Sequence record: PZ386951.1
Source: a phage
DNA: 64,000 bases
Direction: 5' to 3' (one strand)
Shown here: positions 24,204-41,150 of the stretch, in pieces
How positions within the stretch are numbered: position 1 is the first letter of the stretch
Layout of the letters: every line of letters begins with the position of its first letter
Notes under the pieces: generated by a model
What the model was told of the DNA's origin: nothing
Databases searched by the model: none
The model's input: the letters and a program-made list of their open reading frames with translations, nothing else
Translations under genes and position numbers: made by a program

Positions 24204-24207
24204 TAAT

Positions 24208-24225
24208 GGGGACCTTTCGGTCCCC
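24208..24225. terminator. GC-rich hairpin GGGGACC-TTTCG-GTCCCC with T tract
   Basis: inverted repeat then ATATTTTTATTT; between convergent gene 54 and the alt-region genes. Confidence 0.6.
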
Positions 24226-24231
24226 ATATTT

Positions 24232-24522
24232 TTATTTACGGAATGAAATGAAAGCAGCAACTGAAGCAACTAAACTGTCTTCAATATAAACTTCAATTTT
24301 TACCGGAGCTTCTGACTCAAATTTACCTGTTACTACACCCTGAAAAATACTTTCAGTCTGTTCTGGCTTTGAAAAATTTTCAGAAGGAAAAATTCCGAAC
24401 TTTTTATCTGTTCCAAAAATTTTAATAAATTCATCGTAAACTGCTTCATTAAAAGCATTATCAGCAGGAATAACGCCTTCAACTACAAGTTCTTGACCTA
24501 AAAAGCGCAAAGAAGATTTCAT
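24232..24522 (-). CDS. hypothetical protein (alt.-3 position)
   Basis: 96 aa with ATG start; GAGG Shine-Dalgarno; has its own upstream promoter cassette. Confidence 0.6.
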   Translation of the reverse strand: MKSSLRFLGQELVVEGVIPADNAFNEAVYDEFIKIFGTDKKFGIFPSENFSKPEQTESIFQGVVTGKFESEAPVKIEVYIEDSLVASVAAFISFRK

Positions 24523-24530
24523 TTTGTGTT

Positions 24531-24583
24531 CCTCATGTTATGTCAGTAAGACTACTATAACACAACACGAGGGGCTTGTAAAC
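24531..24583 (-). promoter_or_regulatory. early promoter plus stem-loop cassette (PeSL-like), copy 1
   Basis: minus-strand GTTTAC, 17 nt spacer, TATAGT; inverted repeat CCTCATGTT/AACACGAGG encloses the -10; 51 of 53 nt identical to 39508-39559. Confidence 0.55.
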
Positions 24584-26640
24584 TACATTTTGAACTTTTT
24601 AGACATTCCGTTAATGTTAACCAAAGAAGCTAAGATTTGAGAAACTTCGTTTTCCTCTTCTTTTGATTCTTCTACAAGGAATTGATTAAATCCAGTCATT
24701 GGACGAACTTCACCAGTTTCCATTAGATGGTCGCCATCATATACTGATTCCTCTAATTGTTCAGAAGGAGGAACGATTGTACCTTCGATTAGATACTTGT
24801 TATAAGCAGTTTCTTTCATAAAGTACGTACTTACTTTATTAATCTTCAGTAAAATTCCACGCGGTAGAATAACTTCAGCTTCTGATGGAAATCCTGATAA
24901 ATGACCTGGAACAATAACTTTGATTCGCTCAGCTCCTTTAATTACCATACCCACGCTAGTTTCAGCATCTTCATTAGCATATGTAGAATGACTACCCATA
25001 TGCATCAAATCTTCTGCATCAACGGAACCTTCTACTTCGCCAGAAAACGCTGCACCGGAATCATCTAGAGCCATATAGTTTTTACCATGCTCACCGAAGA
25101 TATTTGGTTTAAGCGATGTGGATACGAAGTTCTTGAAATAGAACATTTTGTTTTCAATGTTATGACGCAAAGTTTTAAATGTAACTTCTTGTCCACGGTA
25201 AAGTGTAGTTCCTGGAGGAAGAACTGAACCTTTAGCGAATGCAGAATCAAGCGTCTCAATATGTTTAATAGCTCGTTCCATATATTCTTCACGGGTAGAA
25301 TCTGGTTTACCCAAAAGGAACGAGTTCATTTCAACATATGAATCTGCACAATAATCTTCAATTACATCAGATTCAGCTTGAGTTAATCCTTTTGGAGTTA
25401 CTTCGGTGCTTGCGTATTCATATGCCTGGGCAGCAGATTCATTAATCAATTTATAAATGCCATTCATGACAAATTGAATAATAGCTGTCTTTTCATCTGG
25501 CGTGGCTTTAGAACCTTTAACTAAATCATTAATAATTTTCTTAATAACATCAAAGCTATTAGAAATATTAATGTCAGCAAGATCGCTTAAAATTTTATCA
25601 GTTTTATAATCAAAGAATTCTTTATTCTTTAAATATTCTTGAGAACCTTGATATGTTATATCGCTCTGCAACTTGATAGATGGATCACGTAAACGCGCAT
25701 GGGCTAATGCAATATGATTTCGGAAGTTTTCTAGTTCATAATCGCTAGATTTAAAACGAGAAGCACTCCTCATACCACCGATAGCTCCTTTGCTGAAGTT
25801 TGAACCAATCTGGATAACGCCAGAGTTCATCGGACCTTCTGCTTTATATACCGGAACTTTAGATTCAAACTCTTGATATTTCTTAGCAGCGAAGCTATCA
25901 CCCTGAAGTGAAGCATCAACAGTAGAATATTGAGCTTGTGCTGCTAATCGACGACTAATTTTAGTTTTCTGAATAACAGCTTGATCCGTACGCTTATCAT
26001 TTTCTTGTGCAATAGAAGCAGCAACAGCAACAGCTTTAGGAACAGCATTACCTGTTTTAACGTCTACATAAACATCACCAACCTTTGATTCAACTTTTGT
26101 GAATAACTCAGTTGAAATAGGAGGTACACCTGGAATGTCTTCTAAATTGGCATTTTTACGGTAAACCATAATATATGCATACTTTTTATCATAGTCCCAG
26201 ATTTCCTTTAAAAGAACATATCGACCTGCTCCTTTAGTACGTACTAAACGGTCAGCAATAACTTGCATTTGACGAGCAGCGCCATTTGTTTTACTTTTTA
26301 GTACGCGGAATAAGCATGCATCAATTTTATACTGCTTCATTGTTTGAAGAGCAGTATCAAAAACAGCATTAATGACGCCAATTGGATTTCCACCCAAGTT
26401 TCTAAGCTTAACCAGCGATAATTTCTCGTTGACACCTATCATTACGATATGCATCATTTTGTCGCCCGGCTTAACGTTTTTATTTGTATCACCGCCAGAG
26501 GTGTATGTACAAAATCTAAATCCAGGAAGAACGATTTCTTCACCGGCTTGAATAGCAAAAATTTGTGGTATTTTATGCTTAGGATTTAAGTTAACAACCG
26601 GCGCCGAAGCGCCGTCAAATAATTCTGTAATAAGTTCCAT
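24583..26640 (-). CDS. Alt-like ADP-ribosyltransferase paralog
   Basis: 685 aa; N-terminus MELITELFD and C-terminal ART motifs YRGQ, FVSTSL, SEAEVILPRG shared with the adjacent alt; central region divergent. Confidence 0.8.
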   Translation of the reverse strand: MELITELFDGASAPVVNLNPKHKIPQIFAIQAGEEIVLPGFRFCTYTSGGDTNKNVKPGDKMMHIVMIGVNEKLSLVKLRNLGGNPIGVINAVFDTALQTMKQYKIDACLFRVLKSKTNGAARQMQVIADRLVRTKGAGRYVLLKEIWDYDKKYAYIMVYRKNANLEDIPGVPPISTELFTKVESKVGDVYVDVKTGNAVPKAVAVAASIAQENDKRTDQAVIQKTKISRRLAAQAQYSTVDASLQGDSFAAKKYQEFESKVPVYKAEGPMNSGVIQIGSNFSKGAIGGMRSASRFKSSDYELENFRNHIALAHARLRDPSIKLQSDITYQGSQEYLKNKEFFDYKTDKILSDLADINISNSFDVIKKIINDLVKGSKATPDEKTAIIQFVMNGIYKLINESAAQAYEYASTEVTPKGLTQAESDVIEDYCADSYVEMNSFLLGKPDSTREEYMERAIKHIETLDSAFAKGSVLPPGTTLYRGQEVTFKTLRHNIENKMFYFKNFVSTSLKPNIFGEHGKNYMALDDSGAAFSGEVEGSVDAEDLMHMGSHSTYANEDAETSVGMVIKGAERIKVIVPGHLSGFPSEAEVILPRGILLKINKVSTYFMKETAYNKYLIEGTIVPPSEQLEESVYDGDHLMETGEVRPMTGFNQFLVEESKEEENEVSQILASLVNINGMSKKFKM

Positions 26641-26643
26641 GAT

Positions 26644-28740
26644 TTATCCTTGAACGAACTTGTAAGGCATGTTTGTAATATCTATGCAAGACGCAATAAT
26701 TCCGAGAGATGATTCTACTTTCTGTTTAACATTTGATGAAACAAATGATGCAAAGTCAACTCTGTCTTCTATTTCAATATCACCTGTCATTGCAACTACT
26801 TCGCCGGTTTCCATTAAATGGTCTCCGTCATAGATTACCGATTCGGTGAGCTCTTCCGTGGTCATAACTTCAGCTTGAATGAGTTTTGTATTATTAGACG
26901 TGGTTCCGTCATTATTAGAAGCATCAGTTATTTTATTAACTTTGACCATCAATCCACGCGGTAGAATAACTTCAGCTTCTGTTGCTATTCCGAGACTTCC
27001 TGGATATACAACATTAACTTTATGAGCTCCATCAATTGCCCATCCTATTTGAACTTTAACGTATTCAGGATTTTCTTTATACGCTCTTATTTCGTTTGGA
27101 TTAATAGTTATTCCTTCTTCATTTTTATCAACTGTTAATTCATTGCGAGCTTCTGGTTCTAAAAGACCAATACCAGCATGTGTGATTCCAAAACGTCCAA
27201 AAATGATAGGAGTTAAAGAAGTAGATACAAAATTTCTGAAGTAGAACACTTTATTTTTAACTAACGCTTCATATATAGGAGCAGTCATACTTTGAGCACG
27301 ATAAACTGTAATGCCTTCTGGTATACGGTCACCATTTTCAAAAGCTGAATCTAAGTTATTTATAGCAGATTCAATTTCTTTTTCACTCATTACATCGTAT
27401 CGTTCTGGATTGTAACGACCTAAAAGAAGATTATTAATGTCTGTATATCCTGAACCGCAATATTCTCTAATGCCACGCTTTTGTGATGGAGTATATTTAG
27501 AACCATCGCGGGCAATAGTAATATCAATCATTGGACCGGCACCAATTCCAGAAAAACTGTAAATCATTCGTTTGAGGAATTTAGTTTTTGCTGCGTTCCA
27601 GGAATTTTTAGTTATTTCTTCCCAGACTTCGTCTGGTTGCCCTTTACGAGTTTTATTATGTTTATCAAGCCAATTATCTTTATATTCTTCAAAGAATTTA
27701 TTAACAGCTGCTGCGTATTTCTCTAAACATTTTATTGAAGTAGTTGGTTCATTTTTGATTGCGTTAAAAATTACATCTTTAATTTTTTCTGAAACTTCAT
27801 CAACCTCACTTTTTGAAAAGAATTTATAGTCATAGTGAAGTTCATTCGCAGTTCCTTCGGCAATAATTTTTGCTGCCTTAGTTTTAGAAGCTAATGAATT
27901 AATTCCAAGCTTCATTTCTTCTGCTTCGGGAATTAAAGGAGCGTCAGCAGGTTTATTTAATTCTGCTGCTGAAGCCTCAAATTTTTGAAATATCGGCGTT
28001 TCAAATCTAGAAGATTCCAACGACTGACTTTGTGCAATTGCTCTACGGGAAATTTTAACTTTAACGATTACCGCTTGGTCAGAACGTTTATCATTTTCTT
28101 GCGCAATAGATGCTGCAATTGCCTCATTTTTAGTTACTTGGGCTCCAGTATCTTTATTGATATAAACATCACCGACCTTCGATTCAACTTTAGCAAAGAG
28201 CTCGGTACTAATTTCCGGAACTCCTGGAATGTCTTCTAGTGATACATTTTTGCGATGTATAAGAATATATGCATACTTTTTGTCGTAATCCCAGAGTTCC
28301 TTGAGAAGGACGTATCTGCCACCTGAACGACTACGGATAAGTCTATCAGCAATAACTTGAATTTGTCGAGCTTGGCCAGCAGTTTTAGACTTAAGAATAC
28401 GAAGCATACAAGCATCAATTTTATACTGACGCATCGTTTGCATTGCAACAGTAAAAACTGAATTGATATAATTAATTGGGCTTGGACCAAGACCTTTTAA
28501 TTTAGCAATTGAACCTTTAGCAGTTAATGTAAAAGGAACAATATGCATCATTTTATCGCCCATCTTTAAATCGCGATTAGTATCACCTCCAGATGTATAG
28601 GTACATAAACGAAAGCCTGGTTGTTCAATTGCGTCATCAACATGAACTGAAAAAATTTGTGGTATTTTCTTCTTTGGATTTAAGTTTGTAATCGGAAGAG
28701 TAGTATCTTCGTCAAATAATTCTGTAATGAGTTCCATCAT
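26644..28740 (-). CDS. alt: Alt ADP-ribosyltransferase (packaged, injected with DNA)
   Basis: 698 aa; MMELITELFDEDTTLPITNL matches T4 Alt as recalled; R-S-EXE motifs YRAQ, FVSTSL, TEAEVILPRG. Confidence 0.88.
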   Translation of the reverse strand: MMELITELFDEDTTLPITNLNPKKKIPQIFSVHVDDAIEQPGFRLCTYTSGGDTNRDLKMGDKMMHIVPFTLTAKGSIAKLKGLGPSPINYINSVFTVAMQTMRQYKIDACMLRILKSKTAGQARQIQVIADRLIRSRSGGRYVLLKELWDYDKKYAYILIHRKNVSLEDIPGVPEISTELFAKVESKVGDVYINKDTGAQVTKNEAIAASIAQENDKRSDQAVIVKVKISRRAIAQSQSLESSRFETPIFQKFEASAAELNKPADAPLIPEAEEMKLGINSLASKTKAAKIIAEGTANELHYDYKFFSKSEVDEVSEKIKDVIFNAIKNEPTTSIKCLEKYAAAVNKFFEEYKDNWLDKHNKTRKGQPDEVWEEITKNSWNAAKTKFLKRMIYSFSGIGAGPMIDITIARDGSKYTPSQKRGIREYCGSGYTDINNLLLGRYNPERYDVMSEKEIESAINNLDSAFENGDRIPEGITVYRAQSMTAPIYEALVKNKVFYFRNFVSTSLTPIIFGRFGITHAGIGLLEPEARNELTVDKNEEGITINPNEIRAYKENPEYVKVQIGWAIDGAHKVNVVYPGSLGIATEAEVILPRGLMVKVNKITDASNNDGTTSNNTKLIQAEVMTTEELTESVIYDGDHLMETGEVVAMTGDIEIEDRVDFASFVSSNVKQKVESSLGIIASCIDITNMPYKFVQG

Positions 28741-28773
28741 ATCCTCTCTAGTGTTTATTCTATTTATAAAATT

Positions 28774-33563: not shown

Positions 33564-33592
33564 AACTTTATGCAATCTTTGGAAAATAAAAA

Positions 33593-33612
33593 AGGACTCC
33601 CGAAGGAGTCCT
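33593..33612. terminator. hairpin AGGACTCC-CGAA-GGAGTCCT
   Basis: perfect 8 bp inverted repeat just downstream of the small basic ORF stop. Confidence 0.5.
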
Positions 33613-33616
33613 CAAC

Positions 33617-33793
33617 TTATGCTTTCTGCTTACCAAAACGAGAAGCATCATCTCGAAGAACCGCACGTGCTCGGCGCATGATCTTCTCAACAGTTTGATT
33701 GATACGAGAGTTCGACCCACGCTTGTAGCCAGCGCGTTTAGAATCACCAACTTTCTTTTCAACTGCTTTCTTTGCTTTAGCTTGTTTTGCCAT
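33617..33793 (-). CDS. small basic protein (30.9 position)
   Basis: 58 aa from MAKQAKAKKAVEKK with an SD-like AAGAG; the track's longer version starts at an ATG at 33835 that has no SD. Confidence 0.45.
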   Translation of the reverse strand: MAKQAKAKKAVEKKVGDSKRAGYKRGSNSRINQTVEKIMRRARAVLRDDASRFGKQKA

Positions 33794-38654: not shown

Positions 38655-39004
38655 TTAGAAAGGTCCTGGATGTCTTCTGCGAACTTGTTGAAGGAGTTGT
38701 TGATTTGTTTTTCAACCAATCCTGGCTTATGAGCCACCACATCCGCCTTCTTTGCGTCTTTGCGTAGTTTTTCATTTTCACGCTCAATAGCAGCAATTGC
38801 CTCACGATTTTTATTATTCATCGCATCAATATAATTATACTGAATTCGCAAATTATCTAATGCTAAAGCGTTTTCATTGGCCGTTTTTGTAATTTCTACA
38901 ACAGACGTTTCTAATCTTTCAATTTTATTTTTTAAAATTAAAGAAGTTCCGCCCAATGCAATTACAATTAATAACAAGCCTGCTGTCGTATTACTTAATT
39001 GCAT
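38651..39004 (-). CDS. inner-membrane spanin
   Basis: 117 aa; N-terminal TM helix AGLLLIVIALGGTSLIL followed by a coiled-coil periplasmic domain. Confidence 0.7.
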   Translation of the reverse strand: MQLSNTTAGLLLIVIALGGTSLILKNKIERLETSVVEITKTANENALALDNLRIQYNYIDAMNNKNREAIAAIERENEKLRKDAKKADVVAHKPGLVEKQINNSFNKFAEDIQDLSK

Positions 39005-39501
39005 AAAGTTTTAATAACCTCTATAATATCGTCTTGAGAAAGACCGTTAATTAAAATATGATGTTCAGCCGGAGATTTAGAAATTTTAAAGCATGCCTCA
39101 ACATCTTCTGCCATATCCGATGCACTACGATTTGGATTACTAATTCCAAGACGATGCTTTCCGGTCAAAGGATTAACGATGATATAGCATTTACAGCTAT
39201 TGATATGAACATTAGGCTGAGTCTGATTAATGAATACTTCACAATCATACTTAGCGAGTTGATTTTCTAAAAAGACTTTCATCTCCTCAACCGCATCAGG
39301 AAGCATATCACGGGCTTGCTCAAGACGACGATTTCGATATTCTTTAATGGTCGTTTTCCGCTTGACTTGCTTAGCTAAATCTTTCTTAAGATCGGTGATA
39401 TATCCAACTCGACGATTTCCTTTGAATACAGAAATCCCATCTGTAGTATCACCGTATGCTTCAACGACCATTTCAGTAGTAATAAGTTGTAAATCCATCA
39501 T
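38995..39501 (-). CDS. alc: Alc, inhibitor of host transcription on cytosine-containing DNA
   Basis: 168 aa; T4 Alc position between the pseT region and rnlA. Confidence 0.75.
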   Translation of the reverse strand: MMDLQLITTEMVVEAYGDTTDGISVFKGNRRVGYITDLKKDLAKQVKRKTTIKEYRNRRLEQARDMLPDAVEEMKVFLENQLAKYDCEVFINQTQPNVHINSCKCYIIVNPLTGKHRLGISNPNRSASDMAEDVEACFKISKSPAEHHILINGLSQDDIIEVIKTLCN

Positions 39502-39507
39502 AAAGTC

Positions 39508-39559
39508 CTCATGTTATGTCAGTAAGACTACTGTAACACAACACGAGGGACTTGTAAAC
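39508..39559 (-). promoter_or_regulatory. early promoter plus stem-loop cassette (PeSL-like), copy 2
   Basis: 51 of 53 nt identical to 24531-24583; minus-strand GTTTAC -35; immediately upstream of alc. Confidence 0.55.
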
Positions 39560-39562
39560 AGC

Positions 39563-41150
<1,588 letters not shown>

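Follow-up and report, generated by a model that had tools for sequence, protein, structure and literature searches.

The 64,000-nt stretch of phage DNA analyzed here (record PZ386951.1; hereafter the window) comes from a Tequatrovirus with 97.6% identity to RB32/RB33-type phages. On its minus strand, an early-type promoter, an inverted repeat and a Shine-Dalgarno (SD) sequence are interleaved in a 53-nt cassette that occurs twice, once before alt.-3 and once before alc. Each copy fills nearly all of an intergenic region of about 60 nt. We compared the two copies with each other and with their counterparts in related phages, and we suggest that the cassette may make translation of the downstream gene depend on where its transcript began. 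The features of the two loci are as follows.

24531 to 24583, minus strand: cassette copy 1 (promoter, hairpin and SD), between alt.-2 and alt.-3
24577 to 24582, minus strand: -35 hexamer TTTACA of copy 1 (promoter scan), with GTTTAC starting at 24583
24559 to 24572, minus strand: 5' arm of the predicted copy 1 hairpin, CCUCGUGUUGUGUU (fold), in the -35/-10 spacer plus the first base of the -10
24554 to 24559, minus strand: -10 hexamer TATAGT of copy 1, after TGn (promoter scan)
24547, minus strand: predicted transcription start of copy 1 (by inference), an A 7 nt past the -10
24531 to 24544, minus strand: 3' arm of the predicted copy 1 hairpin, GACAUAACAUGAGG (fold), including the SD GAGG at 24531 to 24534
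24232 to 24522, minus strand: alt.-3, an open reading frame (ORF) of 96 amino acids with its ATG at 24522
24206 to 24227, no strand assigned: bidirectional terminator-like stem-loop between alt.-3 and gene 54 (terminator scan), marking the end of the leftward transcription unit
24583 to 26640, minus strand: alt.-2, a full-length Alt-like ADP-ribosyltransferase paralogue whose TAG stop codon overlaps the first G of copy 1
26644 to 28740, minus strand: alt, a late gene and putative source of read-through transcripts
28761 to 28768, minus strand: late-promoter motif TATAAATA, 21 nt before the alt start codon
39507 to 39559, minus strand: cassette copy 2, between rnlA and alc; its predicted hairpin, of 22 bp, runs from 39503 to 39553
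39553 to 39558, minus strand: -35 hexamer TTTACA of copy 2 (promoter scan)
39530 to 39535, minus strand: -10 hexamer TACAGT of copy 2 (TATAGT in T4), after TGn (promoter scan)
39523, minus strand: predicted transcription start of copy 2 (by inference), an A
39507 to 39510, minus strand: SD GAGG of alc, paired within the predicted hairpin (fold)
38995 to 39501, minus strand: alc, 168 amino acids from the first ATG; the T4 annotation uses the second ATG, at 39498
39563 to 40723, minus strand: rnlA (gene 63) ORF, with its TAA stop codon 3 nt before copy 2

The copies are direct repeats 14,976 bp apart and are identical at 51 of 53 positions, as an earlier note made from the letters of the window had stated; that note located copy 1 correctly, and copy 2 starts at 39507 rather than at 39508. 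The two differences fall at position 10 (C in copy 1, T in copy 2) and position 27 (T in copy 1, C in copy 2), so that the minus-strand sequence reads GTTTACAAG, C or T, CCCTCGTGTTGTGTTA, T or C, and AGTAGTCTTACTGACATAACATGAGG. A repeat search of the window, one of the checks that the note had proposed for the 53-mer, returned the pair as a single 54-nt family with 96% identity, and no match to the 53-mer occurred in 100 dinucleotide shuffles of the window. Among the 741 pairs formed by 39 early-type promoter cassettes from T4 and the window, alc/alt.-3 was the closest (96.3% over 54 nt), compared with 90.7% for the runner-up and a median of 59.6%. As 16 of the 17 spacer bases are common to both copies, promoter consensus fails to explain their identity.

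T4 carries both copies, which agree with each other at 52 of 53 positions. The cassette is matched by 589 records of the phage collection, among which nearly all Tequatrovirus records have two places each, and about 500 Tequatrovirus records have two copies of this sequence per genome. All 29 copies that were read lie in one of two contexts, rnlA|alc or alt(-like)|alt.-3, with no third genomic context among them; they include 13 further copies that came from scanning viral and metagenome contigs for the exact pattern. When IMG/VR was queried with the Alc and Alt.-3 proteins, only 5-6 contigs were returned, all from Tequatrovirus. One record, MG867727.1 (Escherichia phage vB_EcoM-G28), is matched at three places instead of two. 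Three Staphylococcus- or Pseudomonas-named records (MG010123.1, PV654520.1 and OR584013.1) contain T4-type alt.-3 or alc sequence with 96-100% identity and are probably mislabelled or contaminated entries.

In Tequatrovirus, the two loci have one and the same 53-mer as their consensus, each variant is confined to a single copy, and there are no fixed locus-specific differences between the two. Since the copies differ between T4 and the window at 1-2 positions each, a rate comparable to that of the flanks (about 96% identical), gene conversion is not needed to account for their identity, and concerted evolution as a necessary explanation was rejected. The same even pace and the same lack of fixed differences would be expected if the pair were an incidental repeat, i.e., a recent promoter duplication with a functionless inverted repeat. 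We consider this extremely unlikely in view of three results described below: the G.U pairs that make the fold strand specific, the compensatory evolution of the helix at alc across lineages, and the enrichment of spacer-SD pairing over swapped and shuffled spacers. Within Tequatrovirus, pairing is kept in four of six stem substitutions (G16A twice, C15T and G40A).

The promoter scan found in both copies TTTACA, a 17-nt spacer, TGn and then TATAGT (alt.-3 copy) or TACAGT (alc copy), and each motif that the note had listed for the two elements (GTTTAC, the 17-nt spacer, the -10 and GAGG) is in place. GAGG lies 8 nt from the alt.-3 ATG, and 5 and 8 nt from the first and second alc ATG, respectively. 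The whole resembles an early sigma-70-like promoter with a stop codon 0-3 nt upstream and GAGG and ATG downstream; this is a match of sequence only, and as a generic sigma-70 scan was not enriched over shuffles (65 sites versus 71.7), a consensus match alone carries no weight. Neither T4 GenBank record has a promoter feature at the cassette sites, and promoter activity in the window phage is presumed here. The predicted start (A, 7 nt after the -10) would lie between the two hairpin arms and past the entire 5' arm, on its 3' side, in either copy as well as in the orthologues, and an A occupies this offset in all but three of the orthologous cassettes examined. In T4 coordinates, starts are predicted close to 123057 for alt.-3 and 136300 for alc. 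At window position 39533 (position 27 of the alc copy), the T-to-C change turns TATAGT into TACAGT and gives the upper stem an additional C-G pair; phage G8 and one metagenome contig have this variant too.

Folded as minus-strand RNA, the alt.-3 copy forms 14+4 bp and the alc copy 6+11+5 bp, with three G.U pairs. Positions 12-25 pair with 40-53 and positions 28-31 with 36-39; the alc copy helix spans positions 7-57. The inverted repeat described in the earlier note is thus present and does include the SD, although its 9 bp was too small: the RNA hairpin comprises 18-22 bp (-21 to -26 kcal/mol, z about -5). Its 5' arm comes from the promoter spacer, its loop holds the -10, and its 3' arm finishes with the SD. 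The sense-strand 53-mers have a dG of -20.8 (alt.-3 copy) and -22.1 kcal/mol (alc copy), with z values of -4.7 and -4.8, versus -12.3 and -14.8 kcal/mol (z of -1.8 and -2.4) on the opposite strand. The opposite strand folds more weakly because the three G.U pairs turn into A.C mismatches, and this strand asymmetry therefore points to RNA made from the coding strand. As no U-tract follows the stem (tails AACACAAAAUG and ACUUUAUG), the terminator scan does not call the hairpin a terminator. Rfam covariance models gave no match at either cassette with E <= 1. Elsewhere in the window, a sub-threshold match to the Rfam model Atu_C8 at 33578-33661 on the minus strand (31.4 bits versus a gathering score of 50), overlapping a terminator-like stem-loop at 33592-33613, is probably due to chance.

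The predicted consequence of this layout depends on where the RNA begins. According to equilibrium folding predictions, opening the region from the SD to the AUG would cost 11.0 (alt.-3) or 12.8 kcal/mol (alc) in read-through RNA, modelled with its 5' end 60 or 150 nt upstream, and 2.2 or 2.8 kcal/mol in RNA from the predicted +1, which is essentially unstructured (-2.2 and -1.8 kcal/mol). In the read-through RNA, the SD is predicted to be 0% unpaired. We used opening energies because per-base unpaired probabilities misled for the local transcripts, where they are dominated by weak GAGGA/UCUUC pairing (about -2 kcal/mol) in an otherwise empty ensemble. This comparison of read-through and local 5' untranslated regions (UTRs), another check proposed in advance, came out as the earlier note had argued, with the SD closed in the former and open in the latter, and the idea gains further backing from compensatory changes that keep the hairpin between spacer arm and SD arm in six further alc lineages. 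On these model calculations, SD masking by the cassette hairpin is well supported.

That RNA crosses the cassettes from upstream is plausible at both loci. The TATAAATA motif nearest on the minus strand is the one before alt, at 28761-28768; the internal promoter is instead of the early sigma-70 type. The terminator scan found no terminator-like site between this late motif and alt.-3, nor any in the approximately 1.9 kb scanned upstream of the alc cassette, and upstream of the two loci T4 has the mapped middle promoters PnrdB, PI-TevIII, P30 and P30.2. In T4 omics tables, alt.-3 and alc count as early in both RNA and protein, alt as late, alt.-1/alt.-2 as middle in RNA, and rnlA as early in RNA and late in protein (PMC9697503). 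These timing classes fit a separate early promoter before alc and alt.-3 but do not prove it.

We hypothesize, with somewhat better than even confidence, that each copy is a T4-type early promoter nested in an RNA hairpin that senses transcript origin. The -35/-10 spacer would encode an anti-SD strand whose complement is the SD region of the downstream gene, and the transcription start would sit between the two strands. RNA arriving from upstream (late and middle transcripts via alt/alt.-2; early and middle transcripts via nrdB-denA-rnlA) would contain both strands, so that the SD would be folded into an 18-22 bp helix and translation initiation blocked. RNA started locally would lack the 5' strand and be freely translated. 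The outcome would be that Alc and Alt.-3 are made only while early promoters fire.

Relatives of the window phage offer a view of how the element evolved at alc. The order rnlA-alc-pseT.3-pseT.2 is found in Gelderlandvirus, Karamvirus, Mosigvirus, Tegunavirus, Winklervirus, Roskildevirus, Kanagawavirus and two unclassified phages, and an rnlA-alc intergenic cassette of about 60 nt is conserved along with this synteny. Gaprivervirus (VR25) and Acinetobacter phage DLP2 have one extra small ORF between rnlA and alc. In VR25, a stem-loop of the form AAGGGG-loop-CCCCTT stands before this ORF and has a -35-like TGTACA in its loop; it resembles the G/C-type stem-loops of promoter-early-stem-loop (PeSL) modules. 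In six alc lineages outside Tequatrovirus, the cassette consists of GTTTACA, an arm, the -10 and a complementary arm ending in the SD, and the arm sequences differ among them:

Gelderlandvirus: 5' arm TCTCCGTTTAGTT, 3' arm AACTAAACGGAGA
Karamvirus: 5' arm TCTCCATTTGGTT, 3' arm AACCAAATGGAGA
Klebsiella phage phi1_146043: 5' arm TCCTCATCAG, 3' arm CTGATGAGGA
Phage LQ5: 5' arm TCTCCTCAT, 3' arm ATGAGGAGA
Winklervirus: 5' arm TCCTCATTTTGTT, 3' arm AACGAAATGAGGA
Roskildevirus: 5' arm TCTCCTCAG, 3' arm CTGAGGAGA

Cognate arms form stems of 9-13 contiguous bp, versus a mean of 4.1 bp when arms are swapped between lineages. In an arm-only alignment, built by connecting fixed 13-nt windows of the arms with an artificial A6 linker, 91.2% of cells pair versus 68.6% in shuffles, and none of 500 shuffles reaches the observed value. 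Both sides have changed in 9 of the 13 helix pairs, the covariation score is 0.722 versus 0.254, and sliding the partner by 1-3 columns leaves 42-53% paired. The difference between read-through and local RNA in predicted opening cost (ddG) is 7.8-16.5 kcal/mol in the six further lineages. The same architecture with compensatory arm changes in six lineages therefore argues for a selected RNA structure at alc. In the simplest reading of these sequences, the hairpin would be ancestral at alc and older than the alt.-3 copy.

Another candidate reading is translational coupling, in which the SD would be freed only when a ribosome terminating upstream melts the outermost SD:anti-SD pairs, tying alc and alt.-3 to the upstream gene. 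The SD pairs are indeed the outermost pairs of the helix, and in most lineages 6-11 nt separate the upstream stop codon from the first paired base. However, the stop-to-stem spacing ranges from 6 to 23 nt, the latter in Roskildevirus; at the 9-10 nt of Tequatrovirus, a terminating ribosome would barely reach the stem; and the Alt.-3 protein is early although the upstream alt is late. We consider coupling very unlikely.

The alt.-3 locus appears to have had a different history. The order of alt, alt.-3 and the convergent gene 54 is conserved in other genera, and the alt.-3 promoters of six of these have a different interior, with a 4-bp mini-hairpin in the spacer (e.g., CCAC-AAGGAT-GTGG). Their flanks are homologous to those of Tequatrovirus (left, ...TTCAAAATGTAGTTTACAA; right, ACATGAGGA..ATGAAATC). 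These sequences are most simply explained if about 35 nt between the -35 and the SD of alt.-3 were replaced by the alc version in the Tequatrovirus ancestor, which would have given alt.-3 the same gate; the replacement junctions would lie in the shared GTTTACA(A) and (A)ACATGAGGA motifs. Mosigvirus hints at the opposite swap, of an alt.-3 interior into alc, as its alc cassette is most similar to alt.-3-type cassettes by a small margin (75-78% versus a background of 68%). The spacer mini-hairpin of 4 bp is present at Mosigvirus alc and at T4 2458, 50973 and 167086 as well, often with an SD-like AAGGA in the loop, and its stem varies in a compensatory manner (CCAC/GTGG, CACA/TGTG, GCAC/GTGC, CACC/GGTG and ACGT/ACGT).

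In Mosigvirus JS09 (locus 2481-2543) and p000v (2500-2562), the ndd.1 promoter matches the Tequatrovirus alt.-3 cassette from the -10 to the ATG (TATAGTAGTCCTACTGA..AACATGAGGAACACAAAATG) and has its own spacer; T4 ndd.1 has no such promoter. This likeness could reflect past exchange or convergence on an early-leader consensus. We rejected ndd.1 as a third cassette locus, the likeness being confined to the -10, the initial transcribed region and the leader, and we did not count it as evidence of transfer because the shared parts are near-consensus for T4-type early cassettes.

Spacer-SD pairing is also found beyond these two loci. A scan of T4 (1-99 kb and 160-169 kb) and the window for GTTTAC-type promoters with an SD and ATG found about 40. 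In nine of them, the 5' strand lies in or at the promoter and read-through is predicted to carry a penalty of 7.5 kcal/mol or more. These nine lie upstream of alc, alt.-3, 30.8 (window 33563), nrdC.8, modB, regB, denV, e.8 and ndd.4; the regB promoter is a typical early promoter according to the literature. In the control set, 8 of 36 promoters (22%) have a ddG of at least 7.5 kcal/mol, a count in which alc and alt.-3 are not independent cases, compared with 6.9% when spacers were swapped (p about 0.003) and 6.0% when they were shuffled (p about 0.001). At window 33563 (minus strand), before the 110-amino-acid ORF corresponding to T4 30.8, an unrelated early-type promoter has a spacer, CTCCTTTGT, that pairs with the SD region ACAAAGGAG, with a predicted read-through penalty of 12.0 kcal/mol. 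Families of near-duplicate cassettes (80-91% identical) precede unrelated genes at T4 27080, 70696, 53943, 166807, 163673 and 167086, and at T4 73572/window 47942. They share TGGTACTATACAACTATCAACTAC, and one stands before ndd.4, where PeSL-mediated exchange has been proposed (Comeau 2014).

From these counts one may tentatively extrapolate that spacer-borne anti-SD strands form a general, uncatalogued layer of T4 temporal control. About one-fifth of early promoters would carry such a strand, the genes concerned would be translatable only from their own immediate-early transcripts, and interior swaps (alc into alt.-3 in Tequatrovirus, perhaps the reverse in Mosigvirus) would rewire their timing. 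We regard this wider proposal as possible and, on balance, doubtful. If true, it would help to explain the abrupt drop in early proteins under continuing read-through transcription.

Several observations weigh against a transcript-origin switch, or limit its reach. The energies are equilibrium predictions that ignore co-transcriptional folding and the ribosomes on the upstream ORF. The arm windows of the alc alignment were anchored on the promoter and SD, so that this alignment leans toward structure, and RNAalifold on a plain MAFFT alignment of eight cassettes recovered no structure because the arms were set out of register. SD masking is not universal at alc, since the hairpins of Tegunavirus and Kanagawavirus stop just short of the SD (ddG of 2.0 and -1.6 kcal/mol) and Mosigvirus alc is without a long hairpin (ddG of 3.6-3.8). 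At alt.-3, four of the six other genera show little predicted masking (ddG of 0.8-3.2); the values for Karamvirus CkP1 (6.3) and Kanagawavirus PEi26 (11.2) are higher, and neither has a spacer arm. Finally, many T4 early promoters have -10-spanning hairpins that leave the SD free, and such hairpins must therefore have another role too. In PEi26, the predicted cost of opening the alt.-3 SD in read-through RNA reaches 15.1 kcal/mol with no visible spacer arm. Hairpins that span the -10 and leave the SD free occur at window 36584, 33171 and 47942 (minus strand) and at T4 57990, 20612, 73939 and 65799, with z of -3.6 to -5.2 for the two promoters tested; window 36584 corresponds to the annotated T4 early promoter Pe133295.

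The last of these points is what an mRNA processing or stability element would lead one to expect. The hairpin might protect the 3' end of the rnlA or alt message, serve as an RNase III-type site or shield the SD from RegB, with translation control being incidental. Hairpins that span the -10 off the SD are common at T4 early promoters and are seen in two genera at alc, RNA secondary structure reportedly shields GGAG sites from RegB, and a GGAG SD lies inside the helix in several alc orthologues. Yet in 7 of 10 alc lineages the pairs that are outermost and invariant are precisely those between SD and anti-SD, and the Tequatrovirus SD is GAGG, not the GGAG cut by RegB. We assign this explanation a low probability and retain the transcript-origin hairpin as the preferred reading.

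The earlier note had likened the element to the PeSL modules thought to shuffle early genes. In that case, the stem-loop would terminate or attenuate upstream transcription and recombination at the conserved sequence of the cassette would reshuffle early genes between phages or cut out the DNA between copies. PeSLs, as described by Arbiol (2010; PMC2839356), combine an early promoter with a stem-loop of variable position, including over the -10, and extend from a stop codon to an SD and ATG. They number about 50 per genome, lie in hyperplastic regions and at indel breakpoints, are reported to act as terminators and recombine (RB49/phi1; PST/T4, nt-1/KVP40; PMC2839356, PMC4122927). The broad anatomy of our cassettes fits (stop codon, -35, stem-loop over the -10, SD, start codon), and a stable stem-loop does lie within the promoter, with a stem far longer than in described PeSLs. 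Near-duplicate early cassettes do precede unrelated T4 genes (9 of 741 pairs are at least 80% identical, one of them at the proposed ndd.4 exchange site), the alt.-3 interior was evidently replaced by that of alc at shared promoter and SD motifs, and the Mosigvirus alc cassette comes closest to the alt.-3 type.

A 1.7-kb indel also adjoins copy 1. The alt and alt.-2 genes (24583-28740) are tandem full-length Alt-like paralogues with repeat families at 2094-nt spacing, and the stretch 24603-26292 of alt.-2 is missing in T4, leaving the fragments alt.-1 and alt.-2. The T4 deletion junction, however, falls 19 nt outside (upstream of) the cassette and has its own 9-nt microhomology, so that the cassette does not coincide with this breakpoint. 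More than 10 genera share one gene order at each of the two loci, the 29 copies read share two contexts, and in place of many copies before ORFans in hyperplastic regions there are two copies with conserved neighbors. Genes 30, 31, cd and pseT lie in the 15 kb that separates the copies, so that excision of this interval should be lethal. The stem-loops of PST/T4 are described upstream of the promoter, the hairpin here is followed by no U-tract and escapes the terminator scan, and the covariation at alc points to selection on an SD-containing RNA helix, which is not required of a recombination site. Thus, with syntenic loci, no U-tract and no third context, PeSL-type shuffling is only partly supported and is unlikely to explain the cassettes. 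The gene content of relatives, which the earlier note had suggested comparing, shows conserved neighbors and an evidently replaced regulatory interior at alt.-3: the anatomy and an apparent copying of the interior from alc to alt.-3 stand, and the shuffling of genes at variable loci finds little support. Beyond its anatomy, the cassette is, as far as sequence comparison can tell, PeSL-like only in the limited sense that its regulatory interior moved, with junctions in the conserved -35 and SD motifs.

Returning to the transcript-origin hairpin, its two target genes make the proposal of interest for infection biology. Alc shuts off host transcription. The alt.-3 gene is non-essential in T4, and mutations at its locus let T4 escape the CmdTAC defence; the C-terminally extended mutants do so by blocking CmdA degradation (PMC11618068). 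Confinement of Alc and Alt.-3 synthesis to the first minutes of infection would be part of the T4 host takeover. If our hypothesis is true, the hairpin would provide a protein-free stop to early-protein synthesis once early promoters go off, despite later transcripts crossing the gene, and it would be relevant to early shut-off in T4 because a 2010 review describes this process as not completely understood. The idea should be easy to test at alc, since natural compensatory mutations exist in several genera.

How the cassettes relate to known systems can now be set out. Like PeSLs, they are composites of an early promoter and a stem-loop that run from a stop codon to an SD and start codon, are repeated before unrelated genes and have conserved ends that are plausible exchange points. 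Unlike PeSLs, whose stem-loops are compact (G(n)-loop-C(n) in RB49; AGNA-loop-TCNT just upstream of the promoter in PST; PMC4122927), they occur as two copies at syntenically fixed loci, with a 50-nt hairpin that reaches the SD and lacks a U-tract, and the regulatory interior rather than the genes appears to have moved. This tempers the view that repeated promoter cassettes in T4-like genomes are all sites of gene shuffling. The promoter/stem-loop repeats on either side of the internal-protein (IP) loci in T-even phages, to the extent that PMC2839356 relays Repoila et al. (1994), likewise have T4-type early promoters, with AT-rich stem-loops of variable size; those repeats are tied to highly polymorphic IP loci, unlike the cassettes. 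With the T4 early promoters Pe (PMC2988021), the cassettes share GTTTAC(A), the 17-nt spacer, TGn, a TAnnnT -10 and a position directly upstream of early genes. The extended Pe consensus comprises the UP element, -35, TGn, -10 and further conserved positions (PMC2988021); it corresponds to about 60% identity between cassettes and leaves unexplained both the shared spacer bases and the SD complementarity.

The closest parallel is the set of T4 genes e, soc, 49 and I-TevI, in which the SD/AUG is sequestered by a hairpin in long transcripts and an internal promoter yields translatable short ones (PMC3014915). In these genes, as in the cassettes, the promoter lies in the DNA that codes for the helix's 5' strand and the 3' strand is the ribosome-binding site; upstream transcripts are masked and local ones open, here by prediction; and the structure is predicted in related phages as well, in our case being kept in seven alc lineages and absent or shifted in three. 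The post-transcriptional review PMC3014915 does not include alc and does not list alt.-3 among its cases, and the arrangement at early promoters is not described in the 2010 reviews of T4 transcription and post-transcriptional control, older primary literature being outside this comparison. The internal promoter of e, soc, 49 and I-TevI is late (gp55) and switches the gene on late; that of the cassettes is early and of the sigma-70 type, with the anti-SD strand in its spacer, and the gate would therefore close at early-promoter shut-off. By these structural models, the cassettes would be a further example of a masking device already known in T4, here placed at an early promoter.

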